Origin: Acidimicrobiales bacterium
GTDB taxonomy: Bacteria; Actinomycetota; Acidimicrobiia; Acidimicrobiales; CATQHL01
Assembly (NCBI GenBank): GCA_965206165.1
Contig: OZ242194.1
Location: forward strand, 1,775,451-1,839,450
Length of the DNA: 64,000 nt
Direction of reading: 5' to 3'
Each line of letters begins with the position of its first letter. Position 1 is the first letter of the stretch. The position numbers and the translations under genes are program-made. The notes beneath the pieces were generated by a model, which was not told the DNA's origin, did no database searches, and saw only the letters and a list, made by a program, of their open reading frames with translations. Positions 30,126 to 46,126 of the stretch are shown here, piece after piece.

Positions 30126-31163
30126 TCAGGCCGGTAGTTCCGCCCGCACGATGGCTGCCCCGGCGGCGAGCGCCGACAGCTTGGCGAAGGCGACTTCGCG
30201 TGACAGGTATTTCATGCCGCAGTCGGGGGCACAGATGAGCCGCTCCGCCGGCACGTACTGCAGGGCCTCGCGGATTCGCTGTGCGACCGTCTCCGGCGTC
30301 TCCACCTCGGCGTCGCCGTTGTCGATCACGCCGAGCACGACGGTCTTGTCGGGCAGCTTCGCGAGGATGTCCAGGTCGATCCCAGGTTGCGCAGCTTCGA
30401 TGGAGATCTGATCGATGGCGCTGGCGTTCAGCTCCGGCAGGAAGGCGTAGGCGTCCGGCTTCCCGAGCCCCCGCCAGGCGTGGATGGCCGCGTACCCGAA
30501 GCACATGTGCAGCACGGTCGTCCCGGTGACCCCGTCGAGCGCCTCGTCGAGCACCTCGACCGCGTACTGGGAGGCCTTTTCGGGTTTGGCCTGCATGTAC
30601 GGCTCGTCGAGTTGCACGACGTCGGCCCCGGCGTCGAAGAGGTCCTTGATCTCCCGGTTGACCGCCTTGGCGTAGTCGGAGGCCGCCTTCCGCTCGTCGC
30701 CGTAGTGATCGTCCTGGGCCTGCTGGATCAGCGTGAACGGTCCGGGCAGGGTGAGCTTGATGGTGCGAGTGCTGTGGGCTCCCAGCAACTCGAGGTCACG
30801 CACGCCGATCGGCTCGGGCCGGGTGATCGGCCCGGCGATGCGAGGGACGGGATTCGGCTTGCCCGTGCGATCCATGGCGCTGCCGTGGTGGTCGGGGTCG
30901 ATGCCGCCGAGGGCGGTGGCAAAGCGGTTCGAGTAGCTCTCGCGCCGGATCTCGCCGTCGGTGAGGATGTCGATGCCGGCGCGCTCCATGTCCCCGATCG
31001 CCACGATGGTGGCGTCGTCCTGGGCCTCGGTGAGGAATTCCGGCGCGACCCGCCAGAGCTCCCTCGCCCGCACCCGGGGCGGGAGGCGGGTCAGCAGCGC
31101 GGGCCGATCGATCAGCCAGTCCGGCTGCGGGTAGCTCCCCACCACGGCAGTCGGCAACAGCAC
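30126..31163 (-). CDS. Cobalamin-independent methionine synthase family protein (MetE C-terminal-domain-like, about 345 aa)
   Basis: LPTAVVGSYPQPDWL at the N-terminus, and Zn ligand regions (HMCFG, CAPDCGMK). Confidence 0.85.
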   Translation of the reverse strand: MLLPTAVVGSYPQPDWLIDRPALLTRLPPRVRARELWRVAPEFLTEAQDDATIVAIGDMERAGIDILTDGEIRRESYSNRFATALGGIDPDHHGSAMDRTGKPNPVPRIAGPITRPEPIGVRDLELLGAHSTRTIKLTLPGPFTLIQQAQDDHYGDERKAASDYAKAVNREIKDLFDAGADVVQLDEPYMQAKPEKASQYAVEVLDEALDGVTGTTVLHMCFGYAAIHAWRGLGKPDAYAFLPELNASAIDQISIEAAQPGIDLDILAKLPDKTVVLGVIDNGDAEVETPETVAQRIREALQYVPAERLICAPDCGMKYLSREVAFAKLSALAAGAAIVRAELPA

Positions 31164-31314
31164 GCAGCCGAGCCTAATGGACCGCGCTTGTCTACCTGGC
31201 CGTCAACCGCCCACCGAGCACCGTCGCGCTGCTGGCTGCCGGCAGGCGTGCGCGGCGGTGATCGGGCCGTCGCTCACCCGACGACGGATCCAAGCCCGCA
31301 GCGGTCTGCGCGGT

Positions 31315-32286
31315 TCAGTCGAAGAGGGTCGGCTGGGGTGGCGGCGATGGCCGGTCCGCCTCGAACGGCTCCCCGTCGGCACGTTCCGCGGGTTCCAGCA
31401 CCGCCGCTTCGAGTTCGTCGAGCGACGTGACCGGCACGGCTCCCCGTTCCTCGAGTTGCGCGTTGCCGGGACCCTCACCCGGCCCTCGCCAAACGGCGAC
31501 CCGACCGAAGCCACCTTTGAGAGCCTGCACGGCGCCCGACCAGGTGCCGCCCTTGTCCACTTCGCTGGCGACGACGAGGGTAAGCGCGGACAAGGCGTAG
31601 ATGAGCCGGTTGCGCCCCATGGCGTTACCGACGCTGAAGGGCGCTTCGGGGTTGTAGGGGGTGCACATGATCGTGCGGCCCTCGTGGATCGCCCGGCGCA
31701 CGTCGGGACTGCGGAGCTTGCGAACCAGCGACTCCGCCAGCACGCCCACCACAACTCCGCCCGCCTCGAAGGCGGCGTTCATTGCGATCTGATCCACCCC
31801 GCGGGCACCGCCGGACACGAGTGGGAGACCCAGCCGGGCCGCCAACTCCGCCGACGCCCCGGCAACGTCGGCGCCGTCGGGAGACACGTTGCGGCTGCCG
31901 ACGACCCCCACGCCTGGCTCGCCGAGCAAGTCGACGGCTCCCGCCGCGTAAAGCAACGCCGGCGCAGCCGACCCGAGCCGCTCGACGAACCGGCGAGGGT
32001 AGTGCTCGTCGAACGGTGTGAGCGTCGAGATGCCCGCCTGCCCGAGGCGCTCCAACTCGAAAGCGATCGCCGTTGCCCGGTCCAGCAACTCGACGATCTT
32101 CGCGGCCAGGTCGGCGGCCAGACCGTGCTCGCCGACAAGCTTGGTCTCGTCGGCGCCCAGAAGCAGGCTCGGCCCGCCGACCAGGTCGCACAGCCCCCAG
32201 AACTCCGACGCCTTCAGGGGCCGGACCTCGTCGTGGCCGATCCGGCTCAACAGCAGGATCGTCGCCAGCGAATCGTCGTGACTCAC
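31315..32286 (-). CDS. DprA/Smf-fold DNA-processing protein-like
   Basis: Rossmann-type DprA motifs GVVGSRNVSPDG, LVSGGARGVDQIAMNAA, GNAMGRNRLIYAL and GGTWSGA. The GTG at 32286 overlaps the upstream gene's TGA (GTGA), implying translational coupling. Confidence 0.85.
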   Translation of the reverse strand: MSHDDSLATILLLSRIGHDEVRPLKASEFWGLCDLVGGPSLLLGADETKLVGEHGLAADLAAKIVELLDRATAIAFELERLGQAGISTLTPFDEHYPRRFVERLGSAAPALLYAAGAVDLLGEPGVGVVGSRNVSPDGADVAGASAELAARLGLPLVSGGARGVDQIAMNAAFEAGGVVVGVLAESLVRKLRSPDVRRAIHEGRTIMCTPYNPEAPFSVGNAMGRNRLIYALSALTLVVASEVDKGGTWSGAVQALKGGFGRVAVWRGPGEGPGNAQLEERGAVPVTSLDELEAAVLEPAERADGEPFEADRPSPPPQPTLFD

Positions 32287-34448
32287 GTGACCGATCTCCC
32301 GGCCGTGTCGGCCAACGCGAACGGGTACACCGGGCCAGCGCCGGCCTCGCGGAGCGTCCCGCCCACGACCGTCAGCGTCCATTTGGAGTCGACGATGTCG
32401 TCCACGAGTAGAACCGGTTCGGAGGCGACGGTCCCACGAATATCGAATGCCTCCCGCACGTTTGCGTACTGTCGGCGGCTGTTCTGCATCGTCTTCTGGG
32501 GCTCAGTGTCCCGGATCTTCACGACGACATCTTCACACGGGAGCCCCAGCGCCGTTGCCAGCCGCTCGGCGAAGTCCGCCACCAACCCGGGATTCCGCAG
32601 CGAGGGCACGAAGGTCACCCAGGTCGGTGGTGGTGCCGGCTTCCAGCGATTCCGGATCAGATCCCCGGCAGCGCTGACGAGTTGGTCATCGAATCGCCCC
32701 AGTTCCTGCTTGCCCGCCCGGACGAGGCGTCCCCAGCCGCTGTCACCCCACACCGACAGCGCATGCCCCGGCTCGAGCCGATGGTCGGCTGCTATCCGAC
32801 CTCCACCCGGTATCTGCTTGCGGGGTTCAATGGCTCGCCCGGCTTTGCGTAGGTGATCCACTGCATGCTGGACGGTCGCCGGGTCGAATGGGATGGCGAG
32901 GCTGTCACCGGTGCAGTTGTCGCAGATCCCGCACGGCTCCGCCGTCGTATCGTCGAGATAGAGCCCGAGCAGTTGCATGCGACACCGGTCCGTGCGGACG
33001 TAGTCGAGCATCTGCCCCTGCTCGGTCCTGCGCAGGGCGGTTACCGACTCGACCCGGGCGTGGTCGAACGTCCATTCCCCGAGAGTTCGCAGCCAGCGGT
33101 TGCCGGCGCGCTCGACTGCACCGTCGACCTCCAGGTTCTTGAGAAGCGACTCCATCTGCGTCGACCGGACATTGAAGGATGCGAGCAGGTCGCCGGTGGA
33201 CATTGGCTCTGCCCGCTCCTCGAGGAGTGCCACGACGCGTTCAGCGAGATCAGGGGGAGGGAACGCCGAGCGGATGAAGTAGTCCTGGATGTCGGCGTCC
33301 TCGGTGCCGCGCAGCAGGATGCCCCAGGATGTATCGAGCGCCCGCCCGGCACGGCCGACCTGCTGGTAGTACGCAATCGGCGATCCCGGCGACTGGTAGT
33401 GGATCACGAAGGAGAGGTCGGGCTTGTCGAAGCCCATGCCGAGTGCCGAGGTGGCCACCACCGCCTTCACCTCGTTGGATAGGAGGGCCTGCTCGGTTTC
33501 GATCCGCTCGTCGGAATCCGTGCCGCCGCTGTAGGCGATGGCGTTGATTCCCACCGATCGCAGCCAGCCCGCAACCCGCTCGGTGTCGGCGACGGTGAGG
33601 CAGTACACGATGCCTGTCCCGTCCAGTTCCGGGATCACCTCGGCGAGCCAGGTCAGGCGCTCGGCCTGCGAGGGGATGTCGAGCGCGTGCAGTCGCAGGC
33701 CGGCGCGCCGCAGCGGACCCCGCACCAGGGGAAGACCCGAGCCGAGTTGTATGGCGACATCCTCAGTCACGCGGTCGTTCGCAGTTGCCGTGCAGCACAG
33801 GACGGGTACGCCGGCCGGCAGGAGCCCCAGAACACGGGTGATGCGCCGGTAGTCGGGGCGGAAGTCGTGGCCCCAGTCGGAGATGCAGTGCGCCTCGTCG
33901 ATAACAAGGAGGCCGCTGCGACGTCCGACCTCAGGCAGGACCTCGGTGCGGAACTTCGGGTTGGCCAGCCGCTCGGGCGAGATCAGCAGCAGGTCGACTA
34001 CGCCCTCGGCGAGCCTCCCCAGTACGAGATCCCAATCGGCTTGGTTGGTGCTGTTGATCGTCTCGGCTCGCACCCCCATCCGCTGCGCCGCCTCGATCTG
34101 GTTGCGCATGAGCGCCAGCAGCGGCGAGACCAGCAGCGTCGGCCCGGTGCCCCGGTCCCGCAGCATGCGGGTGGCGATGAAGTACACGGCGCTCTTGCCC
34201 CACCCGGTCCGCTGCACCAGCAGCACCCGCTCCCGCCGCCCCACCAGCCGCTCGATCGCCTCCAGCTGGCTCGGCCGAAAGTCCGCCCCCGGATCCCCGG
34301 TGAGCCGCCGCAGCAACTCCAGAGCCTCACGACCGAGCGAATCGCCCGCTGCCACTACGTCGACCAGTTGCCTCATGTCCCCAGAGCGTACGAACCTCCT
34401 GTGACACACCACGGTGTCGCGACCGAGTCGAACCGCGTGGCGTGCCAT
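32283..34448 (-). CDS. RecQ-family helicase fused to a C-terminal ComF/ComFC-like phosphoribosyltransferase-fold domain
   Basis: Walker A QRTGWGKS. RecQ DEAH box VIDEAHCISDWGHDFRPDY. Motif VI YYQQVGRAGR. Cys cluster CRMQ...CGICDNC. The C-terminal 170 aa or so carry TWVTFVPS, QKTMQNSRRQYANVREAF and PVLLVDDIVDSKWT. The start is ATG 34448 (GGAG upstream) or ATG 34376. Confidence 0.85.
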   Translation of the reverse strand: MARHAVRLGRDTVVCHRRFVRSGDMRQLVDVVAAGDSLGREALELLRRLTGDPGADFRPSQLEAIERLVGRRERVLLVQRTGWGKSAVYFIATRMLRDRGTGPTLLVSPLLALMRNQIEAAQRMGVRAETINSTNQADWDLVLGRLAEGVVDLLLISPERLANPKFRTEVLPEVGRRSGLLVIDEAHCISDWGHDFRPDYRRITRVLGLLPAGVPVLCCTATANDRVTEDVAIQLGSGLPLVRGPLRRAGLRLHALDIPSQAERLTWLAEVIPELDGTGIVYCLTVADTERVAGWLRSVGINAIAYSGGTDSDERIETEQALLSNEVKAVVATSALGMGFDKPDLSFVIHYQSPGSPIAYYQQVGRAGRALDTSWGILLRGTEDADIQDYFIRSAFPPPDLAERVVALLEERAEPMSTGDLLASFNVRSTQMESLLKNLEVDGAVERAGNRWLRTLGEWTFDHARVESVTALRRTEQGQMLDYVRTDRCRMQLLGLYLDDTTAEPCGICDNCTGDSLAIPFDPATVQHAVDHLRKAGRAIEPRKQIPGGGRIAADHRLEPGHALSVWGDSGWGRLVRAGKQELGRFDDQLVSAAGDLIRNRWKPAPPPTWVTFVPSLRNPGLVADFAERLATALGLPCEDVVVKIRDTEPQKTMQNSRRQYANVREAFDIRGTVASEPVLLVDDIVDSKWTLTVVGGTLREAGAGPVYPFALADTAGRSVT

Positions 34449-34576
34449 CTGGAGTCTCCGAGTGGGGTGATTGCCTACTAGTCCCGTCACTCTGGTCTAG
34501 CTCTGGCCCAGTGCGCGAGGAGCGAGCCGATTTGCACGTTTGCAGGCTCAGCTACGTCGCGCTGAGGAAAGATCGG

Positions 34577-35290
34577 TCAGGTCTGCGGTTCGAACCCGGG
34601 TAGATGAATTTTCTCGATTCGATCTGTACTTCGCTTCGCCCAGCGCATGATCTCGACCGCGCTGGGGTGATCCGTCGCGTGGAACATCTGGTACTGCGGG
34701 CGACCGCTGCTCGGATCTATGATCGTCTGTGGGAATACGTACTGATAGCCAAGCCCACGAAGACGATCGGCGAACCGGCATATGAGTGCACTGGATGGAC
34801 GTTGACTCTCCCATAAGTCCCACCAAGCATCTCGCCCACCCAACATGCGATCAAGCGTTTGGGGGCTGAACGACTCGGGATACCGGATACGGTCACGGGG
34901 CCATAGCCGGTTGATCACCTGATGCGAATTGAAGAGAATCCACAGTTCGACTTTGCAGCGCTTGGAGTTCTCTCCCGGCGGCGGTGGCACATAGGTCTTC
35001 CAGGCAGCAAGTGCCTCGATTGTTCGCCAGTCAAGCTGCGTCGACTCCTGATCTAAAAGAGCGAAACAGGGACGCTGCTCGTCAAGGTTGCCGCTGTCCA
35101 GAAGTGCGGGAATCACCACGTTGCAGTCTCCCGGGAGGATGTGGATCCGGCTGCGTTGTCGGGCACTCAAGGACTGAATTGCAGTTTCGAGCGTCTGGAG
35201 ATGCGTACTATTCTTTTCGACGAGGTAAAGATGAGCAAATGCCCGGCTCGTGGCTGCGATAAGAGAGGATCCATCGGAATCGAAAGGGTC
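34577..35290 (-). pseudogene. tcmP: TcmP (three-Cys-motif partner protein)-like gene, 5'-truncated by the IS30 end
   Basis: The reading frame continues out of the IS30 left end. Gene-derived sequence starts at DPFDSDGSSLIAATSRAFAHLYLVEKN and runs 237 aa to the stop. It lacks the N-terminal 50 aa or so of the family. Confidence 0.65.
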
Positions 35291-36033
35291 GGCCAGTTCC
35301 ATCGGTCGGTGCACGGTTCCGGTCATGATGACCGGTGCCAACACAAGCACCAACCGATGGAGGTACCAGCATGCCAGGCGCACCGCTGGAGTTGCACGAA
35401 CGCGAGGAGATCTTCCGCGCGCTGGTCGAGGATCTGCAGGCGGGTTGGGCCGCTATCGGTCGTCGGGTGGGTCGACATCCCACGACGGTGGCCCGGGAGA
35501 TCAACGCCGGGGGCGGCCGTGAGCGCTACGGGCCGGCGGCGGCGCAGCGGCGCGCCGAGGTGGCGCGGCGACGGGCGCGGCGGCGCCGCTTGGAGGCGCC
35601 GGGGCCGCTGCGGGACCGCATCTGCGCTGAGTTGCGCCGGGGGCGTTCCCCCGCGGCGATCCGCGCGGACCTCGCCGCGGAGGGCGTGGAGGCGCCGCCG
35701 TGCGTCGAGACCGTCTACCAGGCGCTCTACAGCGGTGCCCTGGACGTGAAACCCGCTGAGTGTCTGCGCCGCCGCCGCCGGCGCAGACGCTGCCGGCAAC
35801 AGCGCAACCCCCGGTCGCGGCCGGGCGGGCCGAACATCGCCGCCCGCCCCGCGGCGGTGAACGAGCGCGCCGAGGCGGGCCACTGGGAGGTCGATCAGAT
35901 CATCGGCGCCTACAACCGGTCCTCGATGATCTGGTTGACCGAACGCCAAAGCCGCTACCTGATACCGGTCACCATGCCCGACGGTTACGACGCCGACGCC
36001 GTCCTCGCCGGCCTCATCGAGGGCCTCGACACC
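35291..36033 (+). mobile_element. IS30-family element copy A: left inverted repeat plus 5' two-thirds of the transposase, truncated
   Basis: IRL is GGCCAGTTCCATCGGTCGGTGCACGG at 35291. The transposase ATG is at 35371 (MPGAPLELHEREEI..., HTH, then HWEVDQIIG...MIWLTERQSRYL). Homology to copy B stops after ...GLDT at about 36033. Confidence 0.8.
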
Positions 36034-36812
36034 CCGGCGTCTTCGGCGGGGTCGACACGCACAAGCACACCCACGTCGCAGCGGTCCTCGACGCCGCCGG
36101 GCGTCTGCTGGGCACCGCAGCATTCGACGCGGACACCGCCGGCTACGCCGCGCTGCTGGAGTGGCTCAGGGGCCACGGCAGCGTCGAGCGCGTCGGTGTG
36201 GAGGGGACCGGCTCCTACGGCGCGGGCCTCGCCCGCAGCCTCGCAGCCGCGGACGTCGACGTCGTCGACGTGAACCGCCCCAACCGCCAGATGCGCCGCC
36301 GCCGCGGCAACACCGACACCGTCGACGCGGAGGCAGCAGCGCGGGCCGCGCTCAACGGCGACGCCGCGGTGGCGCCCAAGAGCGCCGACGGGTGCGTCGA
36401 GGCGATCAGGACCCTCGGCGTGGCGCGCCGCTCCGCGGTCAAGGCCCGCACCGTTGCCGCCAACCAGATCGACGCTGTCGTCGTGACCGCCCCCGAGCAC
36501 CTCAAAGACCGCCTGCGGACGCTGAACACAGCCCGCACCGTGGAGGCCTGCGCCCGGCTGCGACATCCCGGCACAGACAGCGATCCTGTGCTCGCCGCGG
36601 CCAAGCAGGCGCTGCGCTCCCTGGCCCGCCGCCACCAGGCGCTCACCGCGGAGATCAAGCACCTCGACGCCGAGCTGCGCCGCCTGTGCGAACGAGTCAA
36701 CCCGGCGCTGCTGGGCGCTCGCGGCGTCGGCGCTGAGACCGCGGCTGCGCTGCTCGTCGCCGCCGGGGACAACCCCGACAGGATGCGCAGCGAGGCGTCG
36801 TTCGCCGCCCTC
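36034..36812 (+). mobile_element. IS110-family transposase fragment (both ends missing)
   Basis: The fragment begins inside the DEDD domain (GVFGGVDTHKHTHVAAVLD) with no start codon. It carries VGVEGTGSYG and ends in the Transposase_20 region at ...SEASFAAL, where the sequence switches to AT-richer DNA. Confidence 0.8.
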
Positions 36813-37106
36813 TTGGTTCCGCCAATCCCGAAGCCTCGACGATAATGTAATTGAGACTGCTACCCCGGTGGGCGAACTGGTCGATGGCGTCGTCAAGGTT
36901 TTCTCCTTCCAGGCTGCAGCAGATGCAGCTGTTGCTCAGATCCAAAGCCACGTCGGTCTGGAAGAAACGAGCATCGAGTCGATGTTGACCTCGCCGAAGT
37001 CGTTGATAATGGCGCCGAGTTTCAGGCGCTGGTCGTTCTTAAGGAGATGGTTGAGCAGGCTGGTTTTGCCGGCTCCCACGATGCTGGTTAATATTTTCCC
37101 AGTCTT
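36813..37106 (-). pseudogene. CobW/G3E-family P-loop GTPase remnant (frameshifted, 3'-truncated)
   Basis: The minus strand reads ...ILTSIVGAGKTSLLNHLLKNDQRLKLGAIINDFGEVNIDS, then needs a frameshift near 36962 to continue as ...DLSNSCICCSLEGENLDDAIDQF...YIIVEASGLAEP. No convincing start codon is present, and the remnant ends at the IS110 junction. Confidence 0.65.
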
Positions 37107-37153
37107 TATTATCTGTCAGTTTGAAGATTCGACACTTTGTTCTTGTATGTTTG

Positions 37154-37191
37154 TGACTGCCGCTCTCCTATTAAAAAGAGAGCGGCAGTCA
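37154..37191 (-). terminator. Perfect 14-bp stem hairpin 30 nt downstream of the acidic-repeat gene (putative terminator)
   Basis: TGACTGCCGCTCTC-(10 nt A/T loop)-GAGAGCGGCAGTCA was read directly. There is no classical U-tract after the stem. Confidence 0.45.
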
Positions 37192-37220
37192 ATCCGGGGC
37201 AATCAACCTTAGCGTAATGC

Positions 37221-38327
37221 CTAGAAATCAGTCCATCTTCCTGACACCCATTCACCTTCTCTGGGATGATCAAGGTGATAGCATGCAGGAATAAATATAT
37301 CGAAGTACCATTCTTCTCCGTATTCGAAACAAGCCAGCTGAGCCGTCAAGAACTCGAATTCCGCGAACGTTTGACCGACACACATGCCCCACGTTACATC
37401 CCACTCGCAATTATGCTGGTTACCCAAATCGCGTATGGCGATTTGGGTATCTTCGGGGTGATTGTGGCATTGCTTATACTCATCCTCGTACCAGCCGCAA
37501 GCAGTTGTAAAATCATGGATCCTCATCACTTCCTCCCAAAAATCACTATTGGGAGGAAGTGGACCTAGATTTTCTGGAGCGGCGGTCGTCGTAGTCGTCG
37601 GCACTTCGATATCCTCCTCTTCCTGTTGATCCTCAACCGGAGCGGCGGTCGTCGTAGTCGTCGGCTCTTCAACCGGAACGGTCGTCGTAGTCGTCGGCAC
37701 TTCCGGGTCCTCCTCTTCCTGTTGATCCTCAACTGGAGCGGTGGTCGTCGTAGTCGTCGGCTCTTCAACCGGAACGGTCGTCGTAGTCGTCGGCGGTTCC
37801 TCGGGACCCTCCTCTGGTGATCTGGTGCCGAGCGGTTCCTCGGCATCGTCTTCTACCTGCTGGTCTTCAGCCGGAGCGGCGGTCGTCGCGGTCGCCGGCG
37901 CCTCCTCGGCATCGTCTTCTACCTGCTGGTCTTCAGCCGGAGCGACGGTCGTCGCGGTCGCCGGCCCTTCCGAGTCCTCCTCTTCCTGCTGATCTTCAAC
38001 TGGAGCGACGGTCGTCGCGGTCGCCGGCCCTTCCGAGTCCTCCTCTTCCTGTTGATCTTCAACTGGAGCGGTGGTCGTCGTGGTCGTCGGCCCTTCCGAG
38101 TCCTCCTCTTCCTGCTGGTCTGTGCCGACTTGTTCCGGTTCGGAGACTGTTTGACCCGTTGTCTCGACTCCCTGCTCTTCCTTTTCCGCATCATCGTCGG
38201 TCAACTGCCAGGCGGCGTAAACGCCTGCTGCGACAATGATGATGCCGGCGGCGGTCCACAGGGCTCCTTTCAAGGACAAAGAGATGCCTTTGAACATGGA
38301 TTTACTTCCCGCGTTTCTGGTATCCAT
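37221..38327 (-). CDS. Membrane-anchored hyper-acidic Thr/Glu/Asp repeat protein with a Cys-rich C-terminal domain (orphan)
   Basis: N-terminal TM helix (ALWTAAGIIIVAAGVYAAW). About 250 aa of 21-aa-type acidic repeats (APVEDQQEEEDSEGPATATTV). A C-terminal domain of about 110 aa holds 6 Cys and many Trp/Tyr. Codon third positions are far more A/T-rich than in the neighbours. An alternative start at ATG 38297 follows GGGAAG. Confidence 0.7.
   Translation of the reverse strand: MDTRNAGSKSMFKGISLSLKGALWTAAGIIIVAAGVYAAWQLTDDDAEKEEQGVETTGQTVSEPEQVGTDQQEEEDSEGPTTTTTTAPVEDQQEEEDSEGPATATTVAPVEDQQEEEDSEGPATATTVAPAEDQQVEDDAEEAPATATTAAPAEDQQVEDDAEEPLGTRSPEEGPEEPPTTTTTVPVEEPTTTTTTAPVEDQQEEEDPEVPTTTTTVPVEEPTTTTTAAPVEDQQEEEDIEVPTTTTTAAPENLGPLPPNSDFWEEVMRIHDFTTACGWYEDEYKQCHNHPEDTQIAIRDLGNQHNCEWDVTWGMCVGQTFAEFEFLTAQLACFEYGEEWYFDIFIPACYHLDHPREGEWVSGRWTDF
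37577..38125 (-). repeat. In-frame tandem coding repeats (about 63-bp units and variants) within the acidic protein gene
   Basis: Repeated blocks such as GGTCGTCGCGGTCGCCGGCCCTTCCGAGTCCTCCTCTTCCTG(C/T)TGATCTTCAACTGGAGCG are visible on the plus strand. Confidence 0.8.
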
Positions 38328-38337
38328 ATCGTGTGTC

Positions 38338-39396
38338 GGCCAGTTCCATCGGTCGGTGCACGGTTCCGGTCATGATGGCCGGTGCCAACACAAGCACCGA
38401 CCGATGAAGGTACCAGCATGCCAGGCGCACCGCTGGAGTTGCACGAACGCGAGGAGATCGGCCGCGCGCTGATGGCTGACCCGATGGCGAGTTGGGCGGC
38501 GGTCGCCCGCCGGGTGGGTCGTCACCCGTCGACGATCGCCCGGGAGGTCGACCGCGGGGGTGGTTGTGGCCGCTACGGACCGGCGACGGCGCAGCGGCGC
38601 GCCGAGCGGGCGTCGCGCCGCCCGCGGCGGCGCCTCTTGGCGGTTCGGGGCGCCGCTGCGGGAACGGATCGCCACCGAGTTGCGCCTGGGGCGCTCCCCG
38701 GTGGCGATCCGGTCGGACCTCGTCGCCGAGGACGCGCCGGGGCGGCCCTGCGTGGAGACCATCTACCAGGCGATCTATGACGGCGCGCTGGGGGTGCGCC
38801 CGAGTGAGTGTCTGCGCAGCCGCCGCCGGCGGCGGCGACCGCGACAATGCCGCAGGTCAACGAGGCGCCCGACGCCGGCGAACATCTCCAGGCGACCAGA
38901 CGCGGTCAACGACCGCCGCGAGGGCGGGCACTGGGAAGGCGACCAGATCATCGGCGCCAACAACCGCTCGTCGATGATCTGGCTCACCGAACGCCAAAGC
39001 CGCTACCTGATACCGGTCACCATGCCCGACGGCTACACCGCCGCCGCCCTCGCCGGCCTCATCGAAGGCTTCGACACCATCCCCGACCGGCTGCGCCGCA
39101 GCGTGACGTTCGATCAAGGCCCCGAATGGGCCAACTGGAGCACCCTGGCCGCCCACTACAGCATCGACGTGTGGTTCTGCGACCCCCACTCGCCGCGCCA
39201 ACGCGGCCAGATCGACAACCTCAACCGCCAAGCGCGCTGATGGTTCCCCCGCGGCACCGACCTCCGCCTCGTCACCCCTGCCCAAGCAGAACACGCCGCC
39301 AACATCATCAACAACCAGCGCCGCCGCAGCCTCAACTACCGAACACCAGCAGAACTGTACGCTGCCCTCACCGTGCACTGACCACTAGAACTGGCC
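38338..39396 (+). mobile_element. IS30-family element copy B, complete ends but inactivated transposase
   Basis: IRL is GGCCAGTTCCATCGGTCGGTGCACGG (38338). IRR (39371-39396) reverse-complements to GGCCAGTTCTAGTGGTCAGTGCACGG. Total length is about 1.06 kb. It is similar but clearly not identical to copy A. Confidence 0.85.
38418..39381 (+). pseudogene. IS30-family transposase with a frameshift (about 38630) and an in-frame TGA (39238)
   Basis: The N-terminal HTH part lies in the frame of ATG 38418. The DDE part (HWEGDQIIG, MIWLTERQSRYL, VTFDQGPEW, CDPHSPRQRGQ) lies in the frame of ORF 38560..39240. After the TGA the same frame continues as WFPRGTDL...RTPAELY. Confidence 0.8.
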
Positions 39397-39601
39397 GTGG
39401 GTTGTTGATGGACAGTGCGATTCGTGAGGATCCGTCCAGTGTCTCGTTTGTATAGCGTTCCCTATTTTCTGGTTGGCCGCCGAAGATATCAAGATAGAGC
39501 ACTTCGGTGGACTTCCCTTTCGTCGTCGTGGTGAACTTATTGAGATACTCGCGCAACATGGCGAGTTTGCCTCGTGTCCAGAAGCCCCAGTATCTTCCCA
39601 T
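39397..39601 (-). pseudogene. tcmP: TcmP-like gene, N-terminal 68 codons only, cut by the IS30 copy B right end
   Basis: MGRYWGFWTRGKLAMLREYLNKFTTTTKGKSTEVLYLDIFGGQPENRERYTNETLDGSSRIALSINNP, after which the frame reads into the IS IRR. The ATG at 39601 lies 4 nt after the Gp37/Gp68 stop. Confidence 0.65.
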
Positions 39602-39604
39602 CGC

Positions 39605-40351
39605 TTATGTGTAGAGAGGTGTCGGCATCTCGTCGTAACGCTTGCCGTCGAGGTCGCGTCCTCTCGCCTTGGGGGTTCGCCCTCCCCATTGCTTGAAGAA
39701 GAAGGCCACGCCGGCCGGTCCGCACTGGTCTCGGAGGTCGCGGACCCAGACTTCCTCCATGGAACGGGCGCCGGGGCCGCTCTCGCCGCCGGCGATCAGC
39801 CAGTCGATGTCGGTGAGGTCGAGATCGGAGAGTGGTCCCAGTAGCGGCTCGGCGCTGACGAAGCGGACCTTGGCGCCGACTCGGCGGAGGTGGTCGACGC
39901 GGAACGCGTAGCGCTCGGTCTCGACGCTCACGCCCATCCAGACGTTGCCGGGCCAGTCCAAATCGCCGGAGAGGTTGAGCAACCTGCGGGAGCGTTTGGT
40001 GAGGATCTGGTAGGTGTGCTGCGGCGTACCGGCCATCACCTCGAACACCTGCCGGATGAAGTCGAGCGGCACGTCGGGGTGGAAGAGGTCGCTCATCGAG
40101 TTGACGAACACCAGCCGCGGTGAGCGCCACGTGTGGGGGATGGCCAGGGTGTCGGGGTGGAGCGTCAGGGCGAAGCCGGGGCCGCTGGTGCGGGGGTCGC
40201 CGTCGTTGCGGTACTTGGGCTGGCCCATGGCCTTGAGCCGCTTGGCGAGCGCGAGCGCATAGCAGTTGTCGCAGCCCGGCGACGTGCGGTCGCAACCCGT
40301 GGTCGGATTCCACGTCGTCTCGGTCCACTCGATGCCCGAACGGTCTGCCAC
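39605..40351 (-). CDS. Phage Gp37/Gp68 (DUF5131) family three-Cys-motif protein
   Basis: The GTG at 40351 follows AAGGAAGAGGA. Motifs: SGIEWTETTWNPTTGCDRTSPGCDNCYA (three-Cys motif), SMSDLFH, ILTKR, SAEPLLGP and IAGGESGPGAR. Confidence 0.85.
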   Translation of the reverse strand: MADRSGIEWTETTWNPTTGCDRTSPGCDNCYALALAKRLKAMGQPKYRNDGDPRTSGPGFALTLHPDTLAIPHTWRSPRLVFVNSMSDLFHPDVPLDFIRQVFEVMAGTPQHTYQILTKRSRRLLNLSGDLDWPGNVWMGVSVETERYAFRVDHLRRVGAKVRFVSAEPLLGPLSDLDLTDIDWLIAGGESGPGARSMEEVWVRDLRDQCGPAGVAFFFKQWGGRTPKARGRDLDGKRYDEMPTPLYT

Positions 40352-40872
40352 AGTCCTCTTCCTTACTCGACTGCCCACGGCCCCGATCCTAGGAACGGGG
40401 TGTGTCAGCCTTGCCGAGCGTCGGCCCCCGGGCCAATCGAGGCGACCGGCCGCGATCCCGCCGCAGCGGCCGCCCAGTCGGGTCCAACTGCCGGACGGTG
40501 ACCGATTGCCACCCGGCTTCGGGGGCGCGCAGTTCGCACAGTTCCAACTGTTCGATGTGTGCGGTGTTAGAGCGTTCGCTGAGCCGCCGCCGGCGCCTGA
40601 TCCGCGCGCACAGCACATGACGGTGCCCGGAGTCACCACCGCGTCGTCCAGCGGTGTCGAGCCCAAAGTTCACAGCCGCCGTCCCGTCACCAACCGCCGT
40701 CTCGGCCGCCCCGGCGCGAACCGCCTCGAAGCTCCGCCCGGCGTGGTCGTTGCTTCTCGGCCGGCCCTAGCCCACCGGTGGGGTCTGCGACGTTCCCTGG
40801 TCGGGGGCAGGCGGCGGCGGCAGGTCCAGTCTCGCCCCTCCCAGCCCTGGCCCCTTCGGCGGGGGTCCTATC

Positions 40873-41622
40873 TCACTGATCGGCGTCGTCGCGACGATGA
40901 CCCCGTAGTCTTCCGGCCTCGGTTCTACGCGCTCGAATGGCCATGCCAATGCCTTCTTGATCTGTTCCCACATCGGTTTCCGTCCTCTCGTCTGCGTGAA
41001 TGAACTCGAGGTACTCGATGTCCTCCCAGCGGAGGAGAACACCGATGTCATCGTGCGCCGCTGCCTGCCAGTCACCTCGCAGTTCGCCCGTTCGAGGGTC
41101 GACATCGATGGTAGCGGCCAGGTACAGGTCCTGCGGTTCGGGGTAGCGCGCCACTACGGACTGCCGACCGTTTACTTCGGCGAACGCGCCCCCGAGCCAA
41201 GTGCCCGATTTCAGCCGACATCGCACCCATCCCCTGCGCCGGTGTTGGAACAGGTGATCCCACGCGCGCGGCGCGCTGCCGATCCCGGAGAGAGCACGCG
41301 TCCACCTGCGGCCTTCCCTGATCCCGCGGCCAAGGATCGTGCCCGCCGTGGTGGGCACGGCCACGTAGGCAAGGGGCACGACCGCCATCCATCTCGGCAG
41401 GGGTTGCCCCGCCACGAACGCGCTCCAGTGGTTGCCGTACAGCCAATACAGCGGCGTAGAGAACAGGGCGAAGAAGACTGCCGAACCGCCGACGAACCGA
41501 AGAATCCGGTCCTTGCGTTGAATGCCGTACTGGCCGGCCAGCCGCTCAAAGGCCCAGGCGGACAGCGCTCCGGGGAGGAAGGCCACGCCGAGCACGGCGG
41601 TTGCCTGGAAGATCGATGACAC
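40873..41622 (-). CDS. Hypothetical membrane protein, tentatively DUF6338-like
   Basis: The N-terminal half has 3-4 hydrophobic helices. The C-terminal half has the pattern PRAWDHLF...VRCRLKSGTWLGG...YPEPQDLYL. The start GTG 41622 (GAAGGGA upstream) or ATG 41700 is uncertain, and the family assignment is from memory only. Confidence 0.55.
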   Translation of the reverse strand: MSSIFQATAVLGVAFLPGALSAWAFERLAGQYGIQRKDRILRFVGGSAVFFALFSTPLYWLYGNHWSAFVAGQPLPRWMAVVPLAYVAVPTTAGTILGRGIREGRRWTRALSGIGSAPRAWDHLFQHRRRGWVRCRLKSGTWLGGAFAEVNGRQSVVARYPEPQDLYLAATIDVDPRTGELRGDWQAAAHDDIGVLLRWEDIEYLEFIHADERTETDVGTDQEGIGMAIRARRTEAGRLRGHRRDDADQ

Positions 41623-41771
41623 CGACTGTCCCTTCGCCTCGTCTCGTCCTGTCCGGGGAAGCCAGGGGAAGCGGTTGCCACTTGGAATCGACCGCAGCAT
41701 ATGGGCCGGACCGATCGGCCACAGCGGGCAGACCGACGCGGGCACGCCGATAGGAGCGTCGTGCCCGGTGC

Positions 41772-41972
41772 TTGAGGCTTCTGACAGTCCCCTACGAGGC
41801 GAAGTTCACTCCCACGGGCGGCGGATACGTCATCGAGTCTGCAGTCGTCACCGGTGACCAAGACACATACAGTCGCTCTTCGGATGAGGACGAGTCACAG
41901 TTTCTCGAGGAGCTCATCGCCGGTTTCCTGCTGGTCCGGCGGGGTGAGTTGCCCTTGGAGGCTGCTGAGTAA
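41772..41972 (+). pseudogene. Fragment homologous to the N-terminal domain of the macro-domain protein at 43800..44747
   Basis: The fragment reads ...FTPTGGGYVIESAVVTGDQDTYSRSSDEDESQFLEELIAGFLL. The full-length gene reads [43 protein letters not shown]. The fragment lacks both the upstream part and the macro domain. Confidence 0.55.
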
Positions 41973-42572
41973 TTCGCCAGGTTCCCTCGGGTGCGTCGAC
42001 GTTCCCGTACTCGTTGTCTCCCCAGCATTGAATGGTGTTGTCGGTGCGCAGCGCGTACGAGTGCGGCCTGCCGGCGATCGCTCAGAGATCGTCTTCGTGC
42101 TCGGCTCCGAACGCCTCCAGGGCGGCCCGAAATGTGGCGCGGGGGACGAGCGTGGCGTCGCCCCTTTCCTCCAGTTCCTCGGCGTAGCGGAGTATGGCGT
42201 CCGATGCGGCGGCCCGGGCGGGCGGCGCGCTGCGGCGCGGCGCAGGATCGGCGGCATCCTGATGTGCGCGGGCTCGTCGGCATCGGGTTCGGCCATGATC
42301 CGACTATCGAGCCCGGCGCCGGCCGGCCGTCGGGCGCTCATGTCGTTTGCGCAATCGTCCTCGTCGATGAAAGCGTCCTCGTCCCCGTACGCATACATGG
42401 CATCGCGTAGCGTGCTATGTGATATCAGCGAAACGTCGCGCTTTACCTCAAGCTCGTCGGCGAGGCAGAGCACGGCATCGCGTTGCGGACCGAGTCGCAT
42501 GCGGTTCGCCGCGCGTCGCAGGATCGGCGGCATCTCGATGTGCGCGGGTTCGGTCAAGTCAGGTGCCGTCAC
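41895..42572 (-). CDS. Hypothetical ORF made of two tandem paralogous modules, the second frameshifted
   Basis: The GTG at 42572 follows GAAGGAG. Module 1 reads VTAPDLTEPAHIEMPPILRRAANRMRLGPQRDAVLCLADELEVKRD... Module 2, from ATG 42295, reads MAEPDADEPAHIRMPPILRRAAARR... Its homologous continuation (ASDAILRYAEELEERGD...EHEDDL, stop about 42082) lies in another frame. Confidence 0.4.
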   Translation of the reverse strand: MTAPDLTEPAHIEMPPILRRAANRMRLGPQRDAVLCLADELEVKRDVSLISHSTLRDAMYAYGDEDAFIDEDDCANDMSARRPAGAGLDSRIMAEPDADEPAHIRMPPILRRAAARRPPGPPHRTPYSATPRNWRKGATPRSSPAPHFGPPWRRSEPSTKTISERSPAGRTRTRCAPTTPFNAGETTSTGTSTHPREPGELLSSLQGQLTPPDQQETGDELLEKL

Positions 42573-42701
42573 GTTGCGACTCCTTCATCGGCATCCAGAA
42601 TATCGAGCACGGCGCCTAGTGCCAGAGACATCGGAACGTGGCTCGGCTCTCCAGACCGAGACCCTGCGCCAACCGGCGGCACTGCCCGCCCCGATTGCCG
42701 G

Positions 42702-42890
42702 CTAGCGGAATCGAGTCGTGCGCATCCGATCGAGGTCGCCTTCCCAACCCGAGCCTCGCATGGCACGGGCCTCCTCGAGGCTCATCGGCTCGTTGGCCAG
42801 CGTCCGAAGGGCCAGATTGACCGCCTCGCGTTTAGGGATAACCCGCATCGATATAACAGTGAACGGATTCTGGCAGTCTGCCTGCGGCAT
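42702..42890 (-). CDS. VapB-family antitoxin-like small protein without an intact toxin partner
   Basis: The C-terminal signature KREAVNLALRTL...MRGSGWEGDLDRMR resembles actinobacterial VapB antitoxins. The N-terminus is atypical. Only a 20-codon ORF follows downstream before the next gene. Confidence 0.5.
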   Translation of the reverse strand: MPQADCQNPFTVISMRVIPKREAVNLALRTLANEPMSLEEARAMRGSGWEGDLDRMRTTRFR

Positions 42891-42917
42891 CGGCCGGAGT
42901 CGGTCGGCCAGGGTGGG

Positions 42918-43181
42918 TCAGCCCGGTCGGTAGACCTCTCGGCGGTGCTGGACTCGGTGGATCAGGACGACCTCATCGACTTCGAGGATCTCGTAGATGA
43001 TGCGGTAGTCGCCGCGGCGGGCGGACCGAAGACCGTCGAGTTCGCCGACGAGTGGCTTCCCGAGCCGCTGAGGATTCTCGGCGATCGGCCCGAAGATGGT
43101 CTCCAGAGCGGCGTGCCGCACCTTTTCGGGCAGCCGGTTGAAATGGCGGAGACCTTCGGGCGTGATCTCGACTTCGTACAC
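42918..43181 (-). CDS. RelE/ParE-family type II toxin
   Basis: 87 aa. ...LDGLRSARRGDYRIIYEI..DEVVLIHRVQHRREVY is typical of RelE/StbE. It lies 10 nt downstream of a Phd/YefM gene. Confidence 0.85.
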   Translation of the reverse strand: MYEVEITPEGLRHFNRLPEKVRHAALETIFGPIAENPQRLGKPLVGELDGLRSARRGDYRIIYEILEVDEVVLIHRVQHRREVYRPG

Positions 43182-43190
43182 CCGGTCTTC

Positions 43191-43454
43191 TCAGACCTGA
43201 TCGCGCAAGCGCAGCAGCTTTCCCTCGGAGGCTTCTCGGCGCGACTTCCGCAGCGACTCCATGAGCGCGTCGTCTTGGAGTATGTCGAGGGATTCCTCCA
43301 GGGACTCGAGATCGTCGGGACTCACGAGCACGAACGAGGGTCGACCGTTGCGGGTCACCAGGATGCGGTCGTGCTGGCGCTCCACCCGGTCGGCGAGTTC
43401 GGATAGATGGGCCTTGACCTCCGAGAACGGGAGTGTGTCGCTCACAGGCACCAA
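43191..43454 (-). CDS. Phd/YefM-family antitoxin
   Basis: 87 aa. ...FSEVKAHLSELADRVERQHDRILVTRNGRPSFVLVSPDDLESLEESLDIL is a classical Phd/YefM pattern. Confidence 0.85.
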   Translation of the reverse strand: MVPVSDTLPFSEVKAHLSELADRVERQHDRILVTRNGRPSFVLVSPDDLESLEESLDILQDDALMESLRKSRREASEGKLLRLRDQV

Positions 43455-43504
43455 TATAGGTCAGAATCTTGACTTATCTCCGCGACCACCGGGGCGGAGG
43501 GGAG

Positions 43505-43728
43505 GGCCGGTTCCATCGGTCGGTGCACGGATCCGGTCATGATGACCGGTGTTTTGAGTGACACCGACCGATGGAGGTACCAGCATGCCTGGCGCTGCGC
43601 CGGGGTTCCGGTTGCACGAACGTGAGCACATCTTTCGCGCGCAGGCCGAGGATGTGGCGGGGAACAAGTCGGCCGCCGAGACGGTGTTCTGCAGGTCTGG
43701 ACGGGTACCCACAGTGACTATTGACTAG
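43505..43728 (+). mobile_element. Solo left-end remnant of a third, more diverged IS30-family element
   Basis: GGCCGGTTCCATCGGTCGGTGCACGGATCCGGTCATGATGACCGG matches the IRL regions of copies A and B. The ATG at 43585 opens a 47-codon stub (MPGAAPGFRLHEREHIFRA...) that ends at TAG 43726. Confidence 0.7.
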
Positions 43729-43799
43729 CTTGCGGTGTTGGACCGGGCCGCGCTGCGTCTCGTCGTGGTCACGCGCGTGCGGCACCTATCGTTGGCGAC

Positions 43800-44747
43800 G
43801 TGACTGCGCGTCGAGGCGACTGGGAGGCCCACCCGCTCACGCACCCGGAGTCGATCCCTTCGCCCACCCGGATCTGGACCTCCGCAGAGATGGACCACAT
43901 CCGAGAGGGCTACATCCCCAGCATGATGGAGGAGAAGTGGTTCATCTTCATGGAGGGGAATCGCTTGTTAGCGCATCGCAGTTGGACAGGACTGGGTGTC
44001 TATGCGGCGAGGTTCGCCCCGGTCGACGGTGGGTACGTCATCAGCTCCGCGGTCGTCACCGGTGACAGGTCCGAATACAAGCGCTCTTCGGATCAGGACG
44101 AATCACTGATTCTCGAAGTGCTCATCGCCGGTCACCTACTGGGTCAATCGCTCTCAGAGTCACAGCTGGCCGACAAGAGCCCGCATCTTCGCTGGGAACT
44201 GGCCGTACCCAACATTCCGAAGGAGATGTTCTTACCGCACGTTGTCGAGATGGAGCGCCCGGAGCCGAACCTCTACCTGGGCGACATCACCGAGCTGGAC
44301 GTCGACGCAATCGTGAATGCGGCTAACTCCACCCTTCTCGGAGGCGGTGGGGTCGACGGGTCCATCCATCGGGCCGCCGGCCCCGAACTCCTCGAGTACT
44401 GCCGCGCCCTGGGGGGCTGCGACACCGGGCAGGCCAAGATCACGCCGGGTTTCAACCTCGCATCCCGGTGGGTGATCCACACCGTCGGACCCGTCTGGCG
44501 CGGTGGCACCCACGGTGAGCCGGAGCTTCTCGCCTCCTGCTACCGGGAGTCACTGGCCCGCGCCGACGAGGTCGGGGCCGAGACCGTCGCCATTCCGGCG
44601 ATCTCGACGGGGGTCTACGGGTACCCGATCGCAGCGGCCGCCGCCATCGCCGTCGAGACCGTTCGTTCCACGCCCACGGACGTGTCCGACGTCATCTTCG
44701 TCGCCTTCAACCAGGAAACCTTCGACGCCTACTCCGCCCTCGGCTGA
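43800..44747 (+). CDS. Macro-domain (MacroD/YmdB-type ADP-ribose-binding/hydrolase) protein with an uncharacterised N-terminal domain of about 130 aa
   Basis: The C-terminal half carries [34 protein letters not shown] and [14 protein letters not shown] did not recognise the N-terminal half. The start is GTG. Confidence 0.85.
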
Positions 44748-44847
44748 GTTCGATACGTTGGGTTCCCATGGGAATCCACGCTGTGAATCCTCCACTGAAA
44801 AGGACCTCCGCGCCTTCTCTCGCCGCTCACGGACAAGGCCGTCGCTC

Positions 44848-45381
44848 GTGACCACGGAACCGACGTTCCCGGTTGCTCCTGAGCTGGCGATCAGCCGTTG
44901 GTTCAACACCGACGACATCCCGACTCTGGCCGACCTCAGAGGCGAGGTCGTCGTACTGGAGGCGTTTCAGATGCTCTGTCCGGGCTGCGTCTCCCACGGG
45001 CTGCCCCAGGCCCAGCGCATCCAGCAGATGTTCGGCGACGAGCTGACCGTGCTCGGGCTGCACTGCGTGTTCGAGCACCACGAAGCCATGACCCCGGTCT
45101 CGCTCGAAGCGTTCCTGTACGAGTACCGCATCAGCTTCCCCGTGGGCGTTGATGCCCATGGGCCCGGAGTCACCACGCCGATCACGATGGGCCGGTACCA
45201 GCTGCGGGGCACACCGAGCCTCGTGGTCATCGACCGGGCCGGGCGCATCCGTGTCCACGCCTTCGGTCAGGCGGACGACCTCCTGGTCGGCGCCACTCTG
45301 GCCCGCCTCATCGACGAACCCCACCCCCAGCCGGCTGACGACTGCGACCCCGACATCGGCTGCCCCGCCCCAACCCGGTAA
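44848..45381 (+). CDS. Thioredoxin-fold redoxin (TlpA/AhpC-TSA-like)
   Basis: The GTG at 44848 is in frame. The motif LEAFQMLCPGCVSHG contains CxxC. ...GTPSLVVIDRAGRI is typical of TlpA-like proteins. Confidence 0.7.
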   Translation: MTTEPTFPVAPELAISRWFNTDDIPTLADLRGEVVVLEAFQMLCPGCVSHGLPQAQRIQQMFGDELTVLGLHCVFEHHEAMTPVSLEAFLYEYRISFPVGVDAHGPGVTTPITMGRYQLRGTPSLVVIDRAGRIRVHAFGQADDLLVGATLARLIDEPHPQPADDCDPDIGCPAPTR

Positions 45382-45468
45382 CTCCACACCTGGGAGAGTG
45401 CCGAGCAATCGACGGCGGGCGTGGTTCGAACCCCAGCGTGTTCGGGAGTGAGATGTTATGATGCGCAT

Positions 45469-45705
45469 ATGCGCACCACAGTGTCGATCGATGATGAGGT
45501 CTACGAGCAAGCCCGGCGGATCGCATTCGAATCGCGCCGGACGCTCGGCGAGGTGATCAACGAACTGCTCGCGGAGGGACTCAAGGTCGTTGCCCCAGCA
45601 CCGGCGCGTCGCCGTCTCGGGCAGCTGCGAGGCACCATCAGGATCGCCGACGACTTCGACGACACGCCTCGCGAAGTGCTGGACTCGCTCGACGCCGCGC
45701 TCTGA
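45469..45705 (+). CDS. vapB: VapB-type (ribbon-helix-helix) antitoxin
   Basis: The product begins MRTTVSIDDEVYEQARRIAFESRRTLGEVINELL. The stop overlaps the vapC ATG (ATGA). Confidence 0.8.
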   Translation: MRTTVSIDDEVYEQARRIAFESRRTLGEVINELLAEGLKVVAPAPARRRLGQLRGTIRIADDFDDTPREVLDSLDAAL

Positions 45706-46085: not shown

Positions 46086-46126
46086 CGAACCGTTGGCCGG
46101 CGCCGGCGCCGGCGCCCGGCCGCCAC

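Follow-up and report, generated by a model that had tools for sequence, protein, structure and literature searches.

Does a gene pair that joins a RecQ-like helicase, a phosphoribosyltransferase (PRTase)-like domain and a DprA-like protein represent an undescribed system, or does it belong to one that is already known? The question is raised by positions 31315 to 34448 of the window, by which we mean the whole stretch of 64,000 nt analysed here (Acidimicrobiales bacterium, contig OZ242194.1; ~68% GC). An earlier note, made from the sequence alone, had favoured an undescribed module, either for defence or for the processing of foreign single-stranded DNA (ssDNA). Profile comparison identified the two genes as psyrT and psyrA, and we put at roughly 90% the probability that an intact PsyrTA (RqlHI) toxin-antitoxin (TA) and anti-phage module is encoded at this chromosomal locus. 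The PADLOC models for PsyrTA (PDLC03928 and PDLC03927) matched both proteins: the PsyrT profile gave 900 bits (E = 1.8e-271), with positions 7-686 of 689 aligned to residues 55-731 of the long open reading frame (ORF), and the PsyrA profile gave 266 bits (E = 1e-79) over positions 6-295 of 398, the uncovered C-terminal part corresponding to the dispensable helix-turn-helix (HTH) region. The next-best PADLOC families were much weaker (DpdF, 309 bits; ShosA, 87.7 bits). These matches, together with the published work on PsyrTA/RqlHI, refute the description of the pair as undescribed and not characterised, and the copy in the window is an ordinary member of an already known system, published for the first time between 2012 and 2015. 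A standard defence annotator (PADLOC or DefenseFinder) would label the locus PsyrTA automatically, which leaves it little weight as a discovery; its value is that of an example with intact helicase and partner from the Acidimicrobiia, the partner having been almost absent from the Gram-positive bacteria of an earlier survey.

Gene structure and family assignment

The features of the pair are given below; all lie on the minus strand, and residues of PsyrT are numbered throughout according to the 697-aa form that starts at ATG 34376.

32283-34448, minus strand: psyrT (rqlH), toxin gene, RecQ-like helicase with PRTase-like domain (PADLOC PsyrT profile)
33297-34286, minus strand: superfamily 2 (SF2) RecQ-like ATPase core, residues ~31-360 (Pfam, TIGR00614, PDB matches)
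34191-34208, minus strand: Walker A motif TGWGKS (K61)
33888-33899, minus strand: DEAH motif (D160)
33024-33296, minus strand: RqlH-specific linker, residues ~361-451 (no Pfam domain called; position and ~90-aa length as in M. smegmatis RqlH)
32910-33023, minus strand: tetracysteine RecQ-type zinc module, C465, C482, C485 and C488 (Pfam RecQ_Zn_bind)
32286-32900, minus strand: C-terminal ComF-like PRTase domain, residues 493-697, presumed toxic effector (AlphaFold2 and Foldseek)
32376-32411, minus strand: phosphoribosyl pyrophosphate (PRPP)-loop motif LLVDDIVDSKWT, residues 656-667, with D659, D660 and D663 (direct sequence reading)
32283-32286, minus strand: GTGA overlap of the psyrT stop with the psyrA start (direct sequence reading)
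31315-32286, minus strand: psyrA (rqlI), DprA-like antitoxin gene, 323 aa, short form without a C-terminal HTH (PADLOC PsyrA profile)
31510-32040, minus strand: DprA Rossmann-like (SLOG) domain of PsyrA, residues ~83-259, with GSRN, SGGARGVD, RNRL and GGT (Pfam)

The psyrT ORF extends over 32283-34490 on the minus strand and encodes 735 aa at most, and that of psyrA extends over 31315-32382 on the same strand (355 aa at most). The start of psyrT is ambiguous between two candidates, namely ATG 34448, which is preceded by GGAG 7 nt upstream and yields the 721-aa form also found in a public protein collection, and ATG 34376, which yields 697 aa and agrees with most homologues (687-708 aa). For psyrA, position 6 of the PADLOC profile aligns at residue 37 of the long ORF, so the GTG start at residue 33 (323 aa) fits and ATG 32382 does not. 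Read directly on the minus strand, the sequence near 32290 runs ...GGGAGATCGGTCAC-GTGA-GTCACGACGAT..., in which the psyrA GTG (32286-32284) shares bases with the psyrT TGA (32285-32283), just as the earlier note had described; the shared bases suggest that the two genes may be translationally coupled. At the corresponding place, the two closest relatives (L081 and L082) have a spacer of ~66 nt (12094-12161 and 12004-12071, respectively), as opposed to the overlap at 32283-32300 of the window, which indicates that the overlap arose by a local deletion of ~70 nt and is peculiar to this genome. The two ORFs have the full length of their homologues, and the partner genes of the two relatives likewise encode 323 aa. 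Scanning of 31000-34800 returned no promoter-like site and a single terminator-like site, which lies inside psyrA and is at chance level.

The complete RecQ-type helicase core that had been proposed was recovered with all of its motifs in place. The psyrT translation carries TGWGKS, VIDEAHCISDWGHDFRPDY, YYQQVGRAGR and CRMQ...CGICDNC, as well as TWVTFVPS, QKTMQNSRRQYANVREAF and PVLLVDDIVDSKWT, and Pfam called DEAD (1e-21), Helicase_C (5.5e-17), ResIII and RecQ_Zn_bind (26.7 bits, cutoff 25), with neither HRDC nor RQC among the five families called. The general RecQ family model TIGR00614 scored above its cutoff (226 vs 219.8 bits), and RecQ chains in the PDB aligned to residues 9-360 at E = 1e-57. 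In an alignment of 23 homologues, K61, the DEAH tetrad (D160-H163), QQVGRAGR and the four cysteines C465, C482, C485 and C488 were invariant. The helicase family was biochemically defined in 2012 with RqlH of M. smegmatis, and Ordonez et al. described the RqlH clade by a RecQ-like ATPase, a linker of ~90 aa, a tetracysteine zinc module, the lack of HRDC and a ComF-like PRTase domain (PMC3378886). PsyrT of the window has all five of these features (ATPase core, ~90-aa linker, four-cysteine zinc module, no HRDC, ComF-like C-terminal domain). The M. smegmatis protein (MSMEG_5935), which comes from the same phylum and has the same domain organisation, is an ssDNA-dependent ATPase and a 3'-5' translocase and helicase, and its C-terminal domain is dispensable for these activities (PMC3378886). 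Its catalytic K49 and D148 correspond to K61 and D160 of the window protein, and the conserved motifs point to the N-terminal part of PsyrT acting as an ssDNA-dependent 3'-5' translocase or helicase as well. The M. smegmatis protein differs in being solo, without a DprA-like partner, and in being treated as a repair helicase.

Several PADLOC models of DpdF also matched the helicase, the best at E = 2e-92, as would be expected if it belonged to a Dpd island for 7-deazaguanine DNA modification and restriction. However, the PsyrT profile scored three times higher than DpdF (900 vs 309 bits), the NCBIfam DpdF model reached 128.9 bits against a cutoff of 550 and no other dpd genes lie in the island; we therefore rejected DpdF, and hold its assignment to be scarcely conceivable.

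The second gene encodes a protein of the DprA/Smf fold, in line with what had been noted before. Its translation carries GVVGSRNVS, LVSGGARGVDQ and GGTWSGA, Pfam DNA_processg_A matched it with 114.6 bits (E = 4.5e-33), and it aligned to the DprA structures 3uqz, 3maj and 4ljr and to ShosA (8zva/9vzo). The resemblance of the pair to canonical RecQ, DprA and ComFC is one of shared folds, i.e. the RecQ ATPase and zinc folds, the DprA Rossmann fold and the ComF PRT fold, whereas the pair lacks an HRDC or winged-helix domain and lies in a defence/TA island rather than in a competence or repair operon. The canonical families were rejected on their curated cutoffs: RecQ with 281.7 bits against 640 (TIGR01389) and 206.8 against 1015 (PRK11057), with no HRDC called; DprA with 85.8 against 191 (TIGR00732) and 64.3 against 495 (PRK10736); and ComF/ComFC (GntX) with 23.3 against 304, where the likeness is one of fold alone. 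No second recQ-like or dprA-like gene was found within the 64-kb window.

These scores, each far below the cutoff of the canonical dprA, recQ or ComF/GntX model, also bear on the proposal of a dedicated system for foreign ssDNA, which they do not support. A competence-type machine that handles incoming ssDNA, like ComFA/ComFC/DprA, would be in keeping with the presence of all three folds and with a structural match of the C-terminal domain to ComF of H. pylori (TMq 0.53). Yet in addition to the GntX/ComF and dprA scores, the helicase is of the RecQ type and not of the ComFA type, no competence genes lie nearby and the experimental data on the family indicate toxicity and defence, and we consider such a machine very improbable.

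Direct comparison with a known relative outside the Actinomycetota supported the assignment to PsyrTA. When plasmid records were searched with tblastn, an IncF plasmid of E. coli proved to carry a full-length homologue. Its gene, annotated as a RecQ family helicase, overlaps a gene annotated as DprA by 4 nt, in the same order as in the window, and the two lie inside a type I restriction-modification (R-M) system, with hsdM/hsdS on one side and hsdR on the other. In BLASTP, PsyrT was 49% identical to the plasmid helicase over residues 17-692, the stretch LLVDDIVDS-WTLTVV being identical in both, and PsyrA was 35% identical to the 462-aa DprA-like partner over residues 7-321. With PsyrTA of P. 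syringae and RqlH-RqlI of E. coli F11, the window pair thus shares the toxin architecture including the DDIVD loop, the toxin-first order of close or overlapping genes with the DprA-like partner downstream, and the location in a defence/TA island. It differs from them in its host, an Acidimicrobiia-like actinobacterium, in a GTGA overlap produced by the local spacer deletion and in its antitoxin of 323 aa, which lacks the C-terminal HTH region (~80-110 aa) of E. coli RqlI. We regard the short antitoxin, the deletion in the spacer and the location in a conserved hotspot of variable content as minor peculiarities of this copy.

The PRTase-like domain and the proposed mechanism

The C-terminal domain of PsyrT was less accessible to sequence comparison. 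Pfam Pribosyltran stayed below threshold (21.3 bits, cutoff 26.3), and a PDB sequence search with PsyrT matched the helicase core alone and found no solved PRTase domain of a PsyrT or RqlH protein. Since no structure of the domain could be reached by sequence, we modelled the last 205 residues with AlphaFold2 (mean predicted local distance difference test score, pLDDT, 81; predicted template modelling score, pTM, 0.82) and compared the model with the PDB using Foldseek. All 50 matches listed were PRT-fold proteins, 37 of them at E ≤ 0.001, and they included APRT, PurF, HGPRT, OPRT, PyrR and PRPP synthetase, as well as H. pylori ComF (7p0h, TMq 0.53) and ShosT (8zvb, 8zvd and 8zvc, TMq 0.57). 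The domain thus models as a PRT fold, and the in-frame ComF/PRTase-like extension that the earlier note had read from its motifs holds.

The same note had stated that the usual TTG-x-T loop for PRPP is replaced. The motif does differ, but it is not degenerate, because DD[IM]VDS[RK]WT is conserved throughout the family, with D659, D663, S664, W666 and T667 invariant in the 23 homologues. The loop contains the DIVD stretch that ends at D663, the residue mutated in E. coli RqlH. Russell and Mulvey found that toxicity of the E. coli protein requires the PRTase domain and residues of the PRPP pocket, and that it is abolished when the domain is deleted or mutated, as well as in the DIVD-to-EVME and D663A mutants (PMC4670107). 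When RqlH of E. coli F11 is produced without RqlI, the cells show an SOS response, filamentation, growth inhibition and DNA damage; the two proteins are encoded in one operon and interact physically, and RqlI 1-320 gives full rescue, so that its C-terminal HTH is dispensable (PMC4670107). PsyrT of P. syringae is likewise toxic without PsyrA, and the two were described as a toxin-antitoxin pair (Sberro 2013, as cited). In 2022, Millman et al. listed PsyrTA (RqlHI) among phage-protective systems and noted its kinship with ShosTA, which combines a PRTase toxin with a DprA-like antitoxin.

ShosTA is the system with which the earlier note had compared the pair, and its idea of a helicase-armed ShosTA-like module was essentially right. 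Both systems combine a toxin that has a PRTase domain with a DprA-like antitoxin, ShosTA being a TA defence against phage that acts by abortive infection via DNA damage; the model of the window domain matches ShosT structures, and PsyrA weakly matches the ShosA profile (87.7 bits). ShosT, in contrast, has no helicase, the sequence families are distinct, and ShosA neutralises ShosT without direct binding (type IV), unlike RqlI, which makes physical contact with RqlH. Membership in ShosTA itself was rejected on the full RecQ-like helicase of the toxin and on the scores of the antitoxin (ShosA, 87.7 bits; PsyrA, 266 bits), and no ShosT model appeared among the 25 best of 34 PADLOC matches. To be toxic, ShosT has to bind PRPP, and according to one study it disrupts purine metabolism; ShosA binds ssDNA and RecA.

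Taken together with the experiments on these relatives, the architecture of the locus suggests a mechanism. The N-terminal part of PsyrT would act as a RecQ-like ssDNA-dependent 3'-5' translocase or helicase, as in the biochemistry of M. smegmatis RqlH, and its C-terminal PRTase-like domain would be the toxic effector, dependent, like that of E. coli RqlH, on the acidic DDIVD PRPP-binding loop. If ShosT is a guide, this effector probably acts by binding or consuming PRPP, thereby perturbing nucleotide metabolism or DNA replication. PsyrA, made from the same transcript and probably translationally coupled via GTGA, would restrain PsyrT until a cue from phage infection lifts the inhibition. Phage ssDNA or replication intermediates could plausibly serve as this cue, by engaging the helicase or by titrating the DprA-like protein. 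The released PRTase activity would then arrest the cell and phage replication through genotoxic or metabolic arrest. We expect toxicity of PsyrT, its neutralisation by PsyrA and an interaction between the two proteins from what has been shown for the E. coli pair, and protection of the host against phage would follow the activity reported for the family. We found no report in the literature of a substrate, trigger or structure of PsyrT, and for the chemistry of the PRTase domain, sensing by the helicase and the trigger of release, the window locus offers no easier route than the E. coli or Pseudomonas systems.

Variation in the domain was seen among relatives. The closest full-length relative (L081/P0002) has DN for DD in the PRPP loop (LLVDNIVDS). 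In a close relative (P0004, 90% identical, 781 aa), the called PsyrT ceases to follow the family sequence inside the PRTase domain and continues into a longer C-terminal tail in which N-terminal PsyrA sequence appears (..DDSLATILLLGRLG..); either a pseudogene or an error in the assembly could account for this aberrant C-terminus. Used as a query, the RqlH-type C-terminal domain retrieved 2402 cluster representatives at E ≤ 0.001, and it was also seen at the extreme C-terminus of proteins of 1056-2597 aa (P0141, P0150, P0160, P0161, P0179 and P0191). The domain may be a portable effector module that has been joined to other machines.

Distribution of the pair

The family has many members. A word-indexed search of proteins scored 8000 candidates, every one of which passed E = 1e-10, the best 120 being 69-95% identical to PsyrT of the window, and a relative is encoded at 596 of the first 600 pattern matches from GTDB species genomes; the best match in a GTDB species representative is 73% identical and comes from the Acidimicrobiales. 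The neighbourhood survey that the earlier note had called for took those of the best 80 GTDB loci that had at least 1 kb of downstream sequence, and scored a DprA-like gene directly after the helicase as follows.

Non-Actinomycetota: 28 of 31 loci
Acidimicrobiia: 4 of 7 loci
Thermoleophilia: 1 of 9 loci
Actinomycetes: 1 of 25 loci

The partner gene is rare in most Actinomycetota, and these counts reproduce the result of Russell and Mulvey that Gram-positive bacteria mostly have RqlH alone, with the partner in almost none (PMC4670107). The window is one of the minority of Actinomycetota loci that have the complete pair. Partner genes themselves come in two lengths: about one third of those surveyed are short (~305-350 aa), as in the window, the others being longer at the C-terminus by 80-150 aa. 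None of the phage records contained a full-length homologue (at least 80% coverage), and there is no sign that psyrTA is prophage-borne.

In nine solo loci, the equivalent of the toxicity-linked D663 is replaced (L012, L019, L021, L032, L036, L038, L040, L054 and L070), with motifs such as DDLRFSGWT, DDRRMSGWT, DDVLASGWT and DDRTRSGWT. Most of these loci belong to the Solirubrobacterales and their relatives, one to the Acidimicrobiales and one to Kineococcus, and other solo lineages retain D or E at this position. The replacement may reflect detoxification after loss of the antitoxin. In a locus from the Chloroflexota (L043, 7214-7894), the DprA-like gene lies upstream of the helicase, unlike the order that Russell and Mulvey called invariant.

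The chromosomal site and competing readings

The pair lies at one end of an island that occupies 31.3-46.1 kb of the window, ends at a biotin carboxylase gene and contains PsyrTA, a truncated tcmP, IS30-like and IS110-type insertion sequence (IS) elements, an ORF with acidic repeats, and genes for DUF5131, DUF6338, ParE/Phd, Macro and PIN proteins. The IS/TA-rich island with an adjoining TcmP remnant that had been noted was thereby borne out, the tcmP gene being 5'-truncated and IS30-like, IS110-type, ParE/Phd and PIN genes all lying nearby. The other features of the island are listed here.

34577-35383 (minus strand), 35288-36270, 38335-39455 and 39605-40666 (minus strand): DUF5131/TcmP/IS30-like region
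42918-43454: ParE/Phd genes
43800-44747: Macro-domain protein with a 150-aa N-terminal extension
45705-46085: PIN gene

Two close relatives, in which PsyrT is 92% and 84% identical, have the psyrTA pair at the same site. One flank in these genomes consists of MetE-like, FxsA, PhyH, RDD, oxidoreductase and GDP-mannose dehydratase genes, and the other of a DUF5131 gene followed by variable cargo, which in one relative comprises the hsdR/S/M genes of a type I R-M system together with a further DUF5131 gene and in the other genes for HNH, DUF5615/DUF433, ResIII, Macro and ParE/Phd proteins. The interval between the MetE-like and biotin carboxylase genes (window 31300-46100; L081 1-13200; L082 1-13100) is thus a conserved integration hotspot with variable cargo. 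In other Acidimicrobiales, the 73%-identical homologues lie in unrelated contexts, one with and one without a partner, from which it follows that the pair is not the universal core locus that would have spoken against the earlier note. Relative to L081 and L082, the window is 77-79% identical in PsyrA, 84-92% in PsyrT and 94-96% in the MetE-like and PhyH proteins; in these comparisons the antitoxin diverges faster than the toxin and the toxin faster than the flanking genes.

Some of these observations, and some from the family at large, weigh against an anti-phage TA module. PsyrTA of E. coli NILS69 gave no detectable protection against the phages tried, either in the native host or in K-12. 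Most Actinomycetota have the helicase without its DprA-like partner, so that toxicity is not universal in the family. PsyrA of the window lacks the C-terminal HTH of E. coli RqlI, although the HTH is dispensable there. Finally, psyrTA has been kept at a single site by stable inheritance in three genomes, and its GC content at third codon positions (GC3, 0.83-0.85) matches the host, a combination that is also compatible with domestication to a role outside defence.

The last of these points could be taken to mean that the pair is a domesticated module for DNA repair and recombination, in which RqlH serves as the RecQ-type repair helicase of the lineage and its partner as a RecA-loading or regulatory factor. 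In M. smegmatis, whose genus has no RecQ, RqlH was indeed described as a helicase of the repair type that resembles RecQ (PMC3378886), the pair adjoins housekeeping genes at the same chromosomal site in three related genomes, its GC3 equals that of the host, and the related antitoxin ShosA binds RecA and ssDNA. However, the PRPP motif linked to toxicity is intact, PsyrA scores 266 bits on its own model and 85.8 on dprA TIGR00732 (cutoff 191), the antitoxin is 77-79% identical compared with 94-96% for flanking housekeeping genes and hence diverges far faster, the site is a hotspot with variable cargo, and the 73%-identical homologues in Acidimicrobiales occur in other contexts, one with and one without a partner. 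On balance we doubt that the pair is a repair module of this kind. We are similarly sceptical of the related idea that psyrTA was domesticated in this lineage of the Acidimicrobiia as a regulated factor for DNA repair or replication stress, or one with dual roles in repair and defence, rather than a simple abortive-infection TA system. This idea is derived from vertical inheritance at one site (in at least three genomes), host-like codon composition and the short, HTH-less partner, and, if it were true, the losses of the partner that are scattered among other Actinomycetota, in some cases accompanied by replacement of D663, would represent repeated steps along the same path.

The neighbours of the pair bring in another explanation, namely that PsyrTA is a plain addiction module which stabilises the island or hotspot by post-segregational killing and has no role against phage. 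PsyrTA was first found as a TA pair (Sberro 2013, as cited), in the window it adjoins other TA genes (ParE/Phd and PIN), and the NILS69 system gave no protection against the phages tried. Set against this, anti-phage activity has been reported for the family, members of the family lie within R-M operons and defence islands, and TA behaviour and phage defence are not mutually exclusive. An addiction function without any defence role is possible but, in our judgement, unlikely, and we retain the assignment to a PsyrTA toxin-antitoxin and anti-phage module.

Besides psyrTA, the island holds what looks like a second, disrupted defence locus. The DUF5131 gene matched the PADLOC candidates PDC-M41B/PDC-M30B (E = 3e-108), and the TcmP gene matched TIGR04474 and PDC-M41A. 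In a close relative, the two genes adjoin each other immediately upstream of psyrT; in the window ~4.2 kb separates them. The profile match of the window TcmP begins at position 54, and the apparent N-terminus of the truncated gene is formed by the end of an IS30-like element. The inserted DNA lies between two IS30-like copies that have diverged (72-85% identical), and the first of these copies overlaps an IS110-type transposase ORF (35760-36845). From this arrangement, it looks as if a candidate DUF5131/TcmP defence pair has been inactivated through IS insertion. A PADLOC scan of ten further ORFs of the island returned no match.

Between the IS30-like copies lies an ORF of 368 aa (37221-38327, minus strand), for which Pfam, NCBIfam and PADLOC gave no match. 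Its product has an N-terminal hydrophobic segment, tandem acidic repeats rich in Thr, Glu, Asp and Gln, encoded by DNA units of 63-96 nt, and a C-terminal region rich in Cys and Trp. The GC3 of this ORF is 0.59, compared with ~0.85 for host genes, which suggests that it is recently imported cargo.

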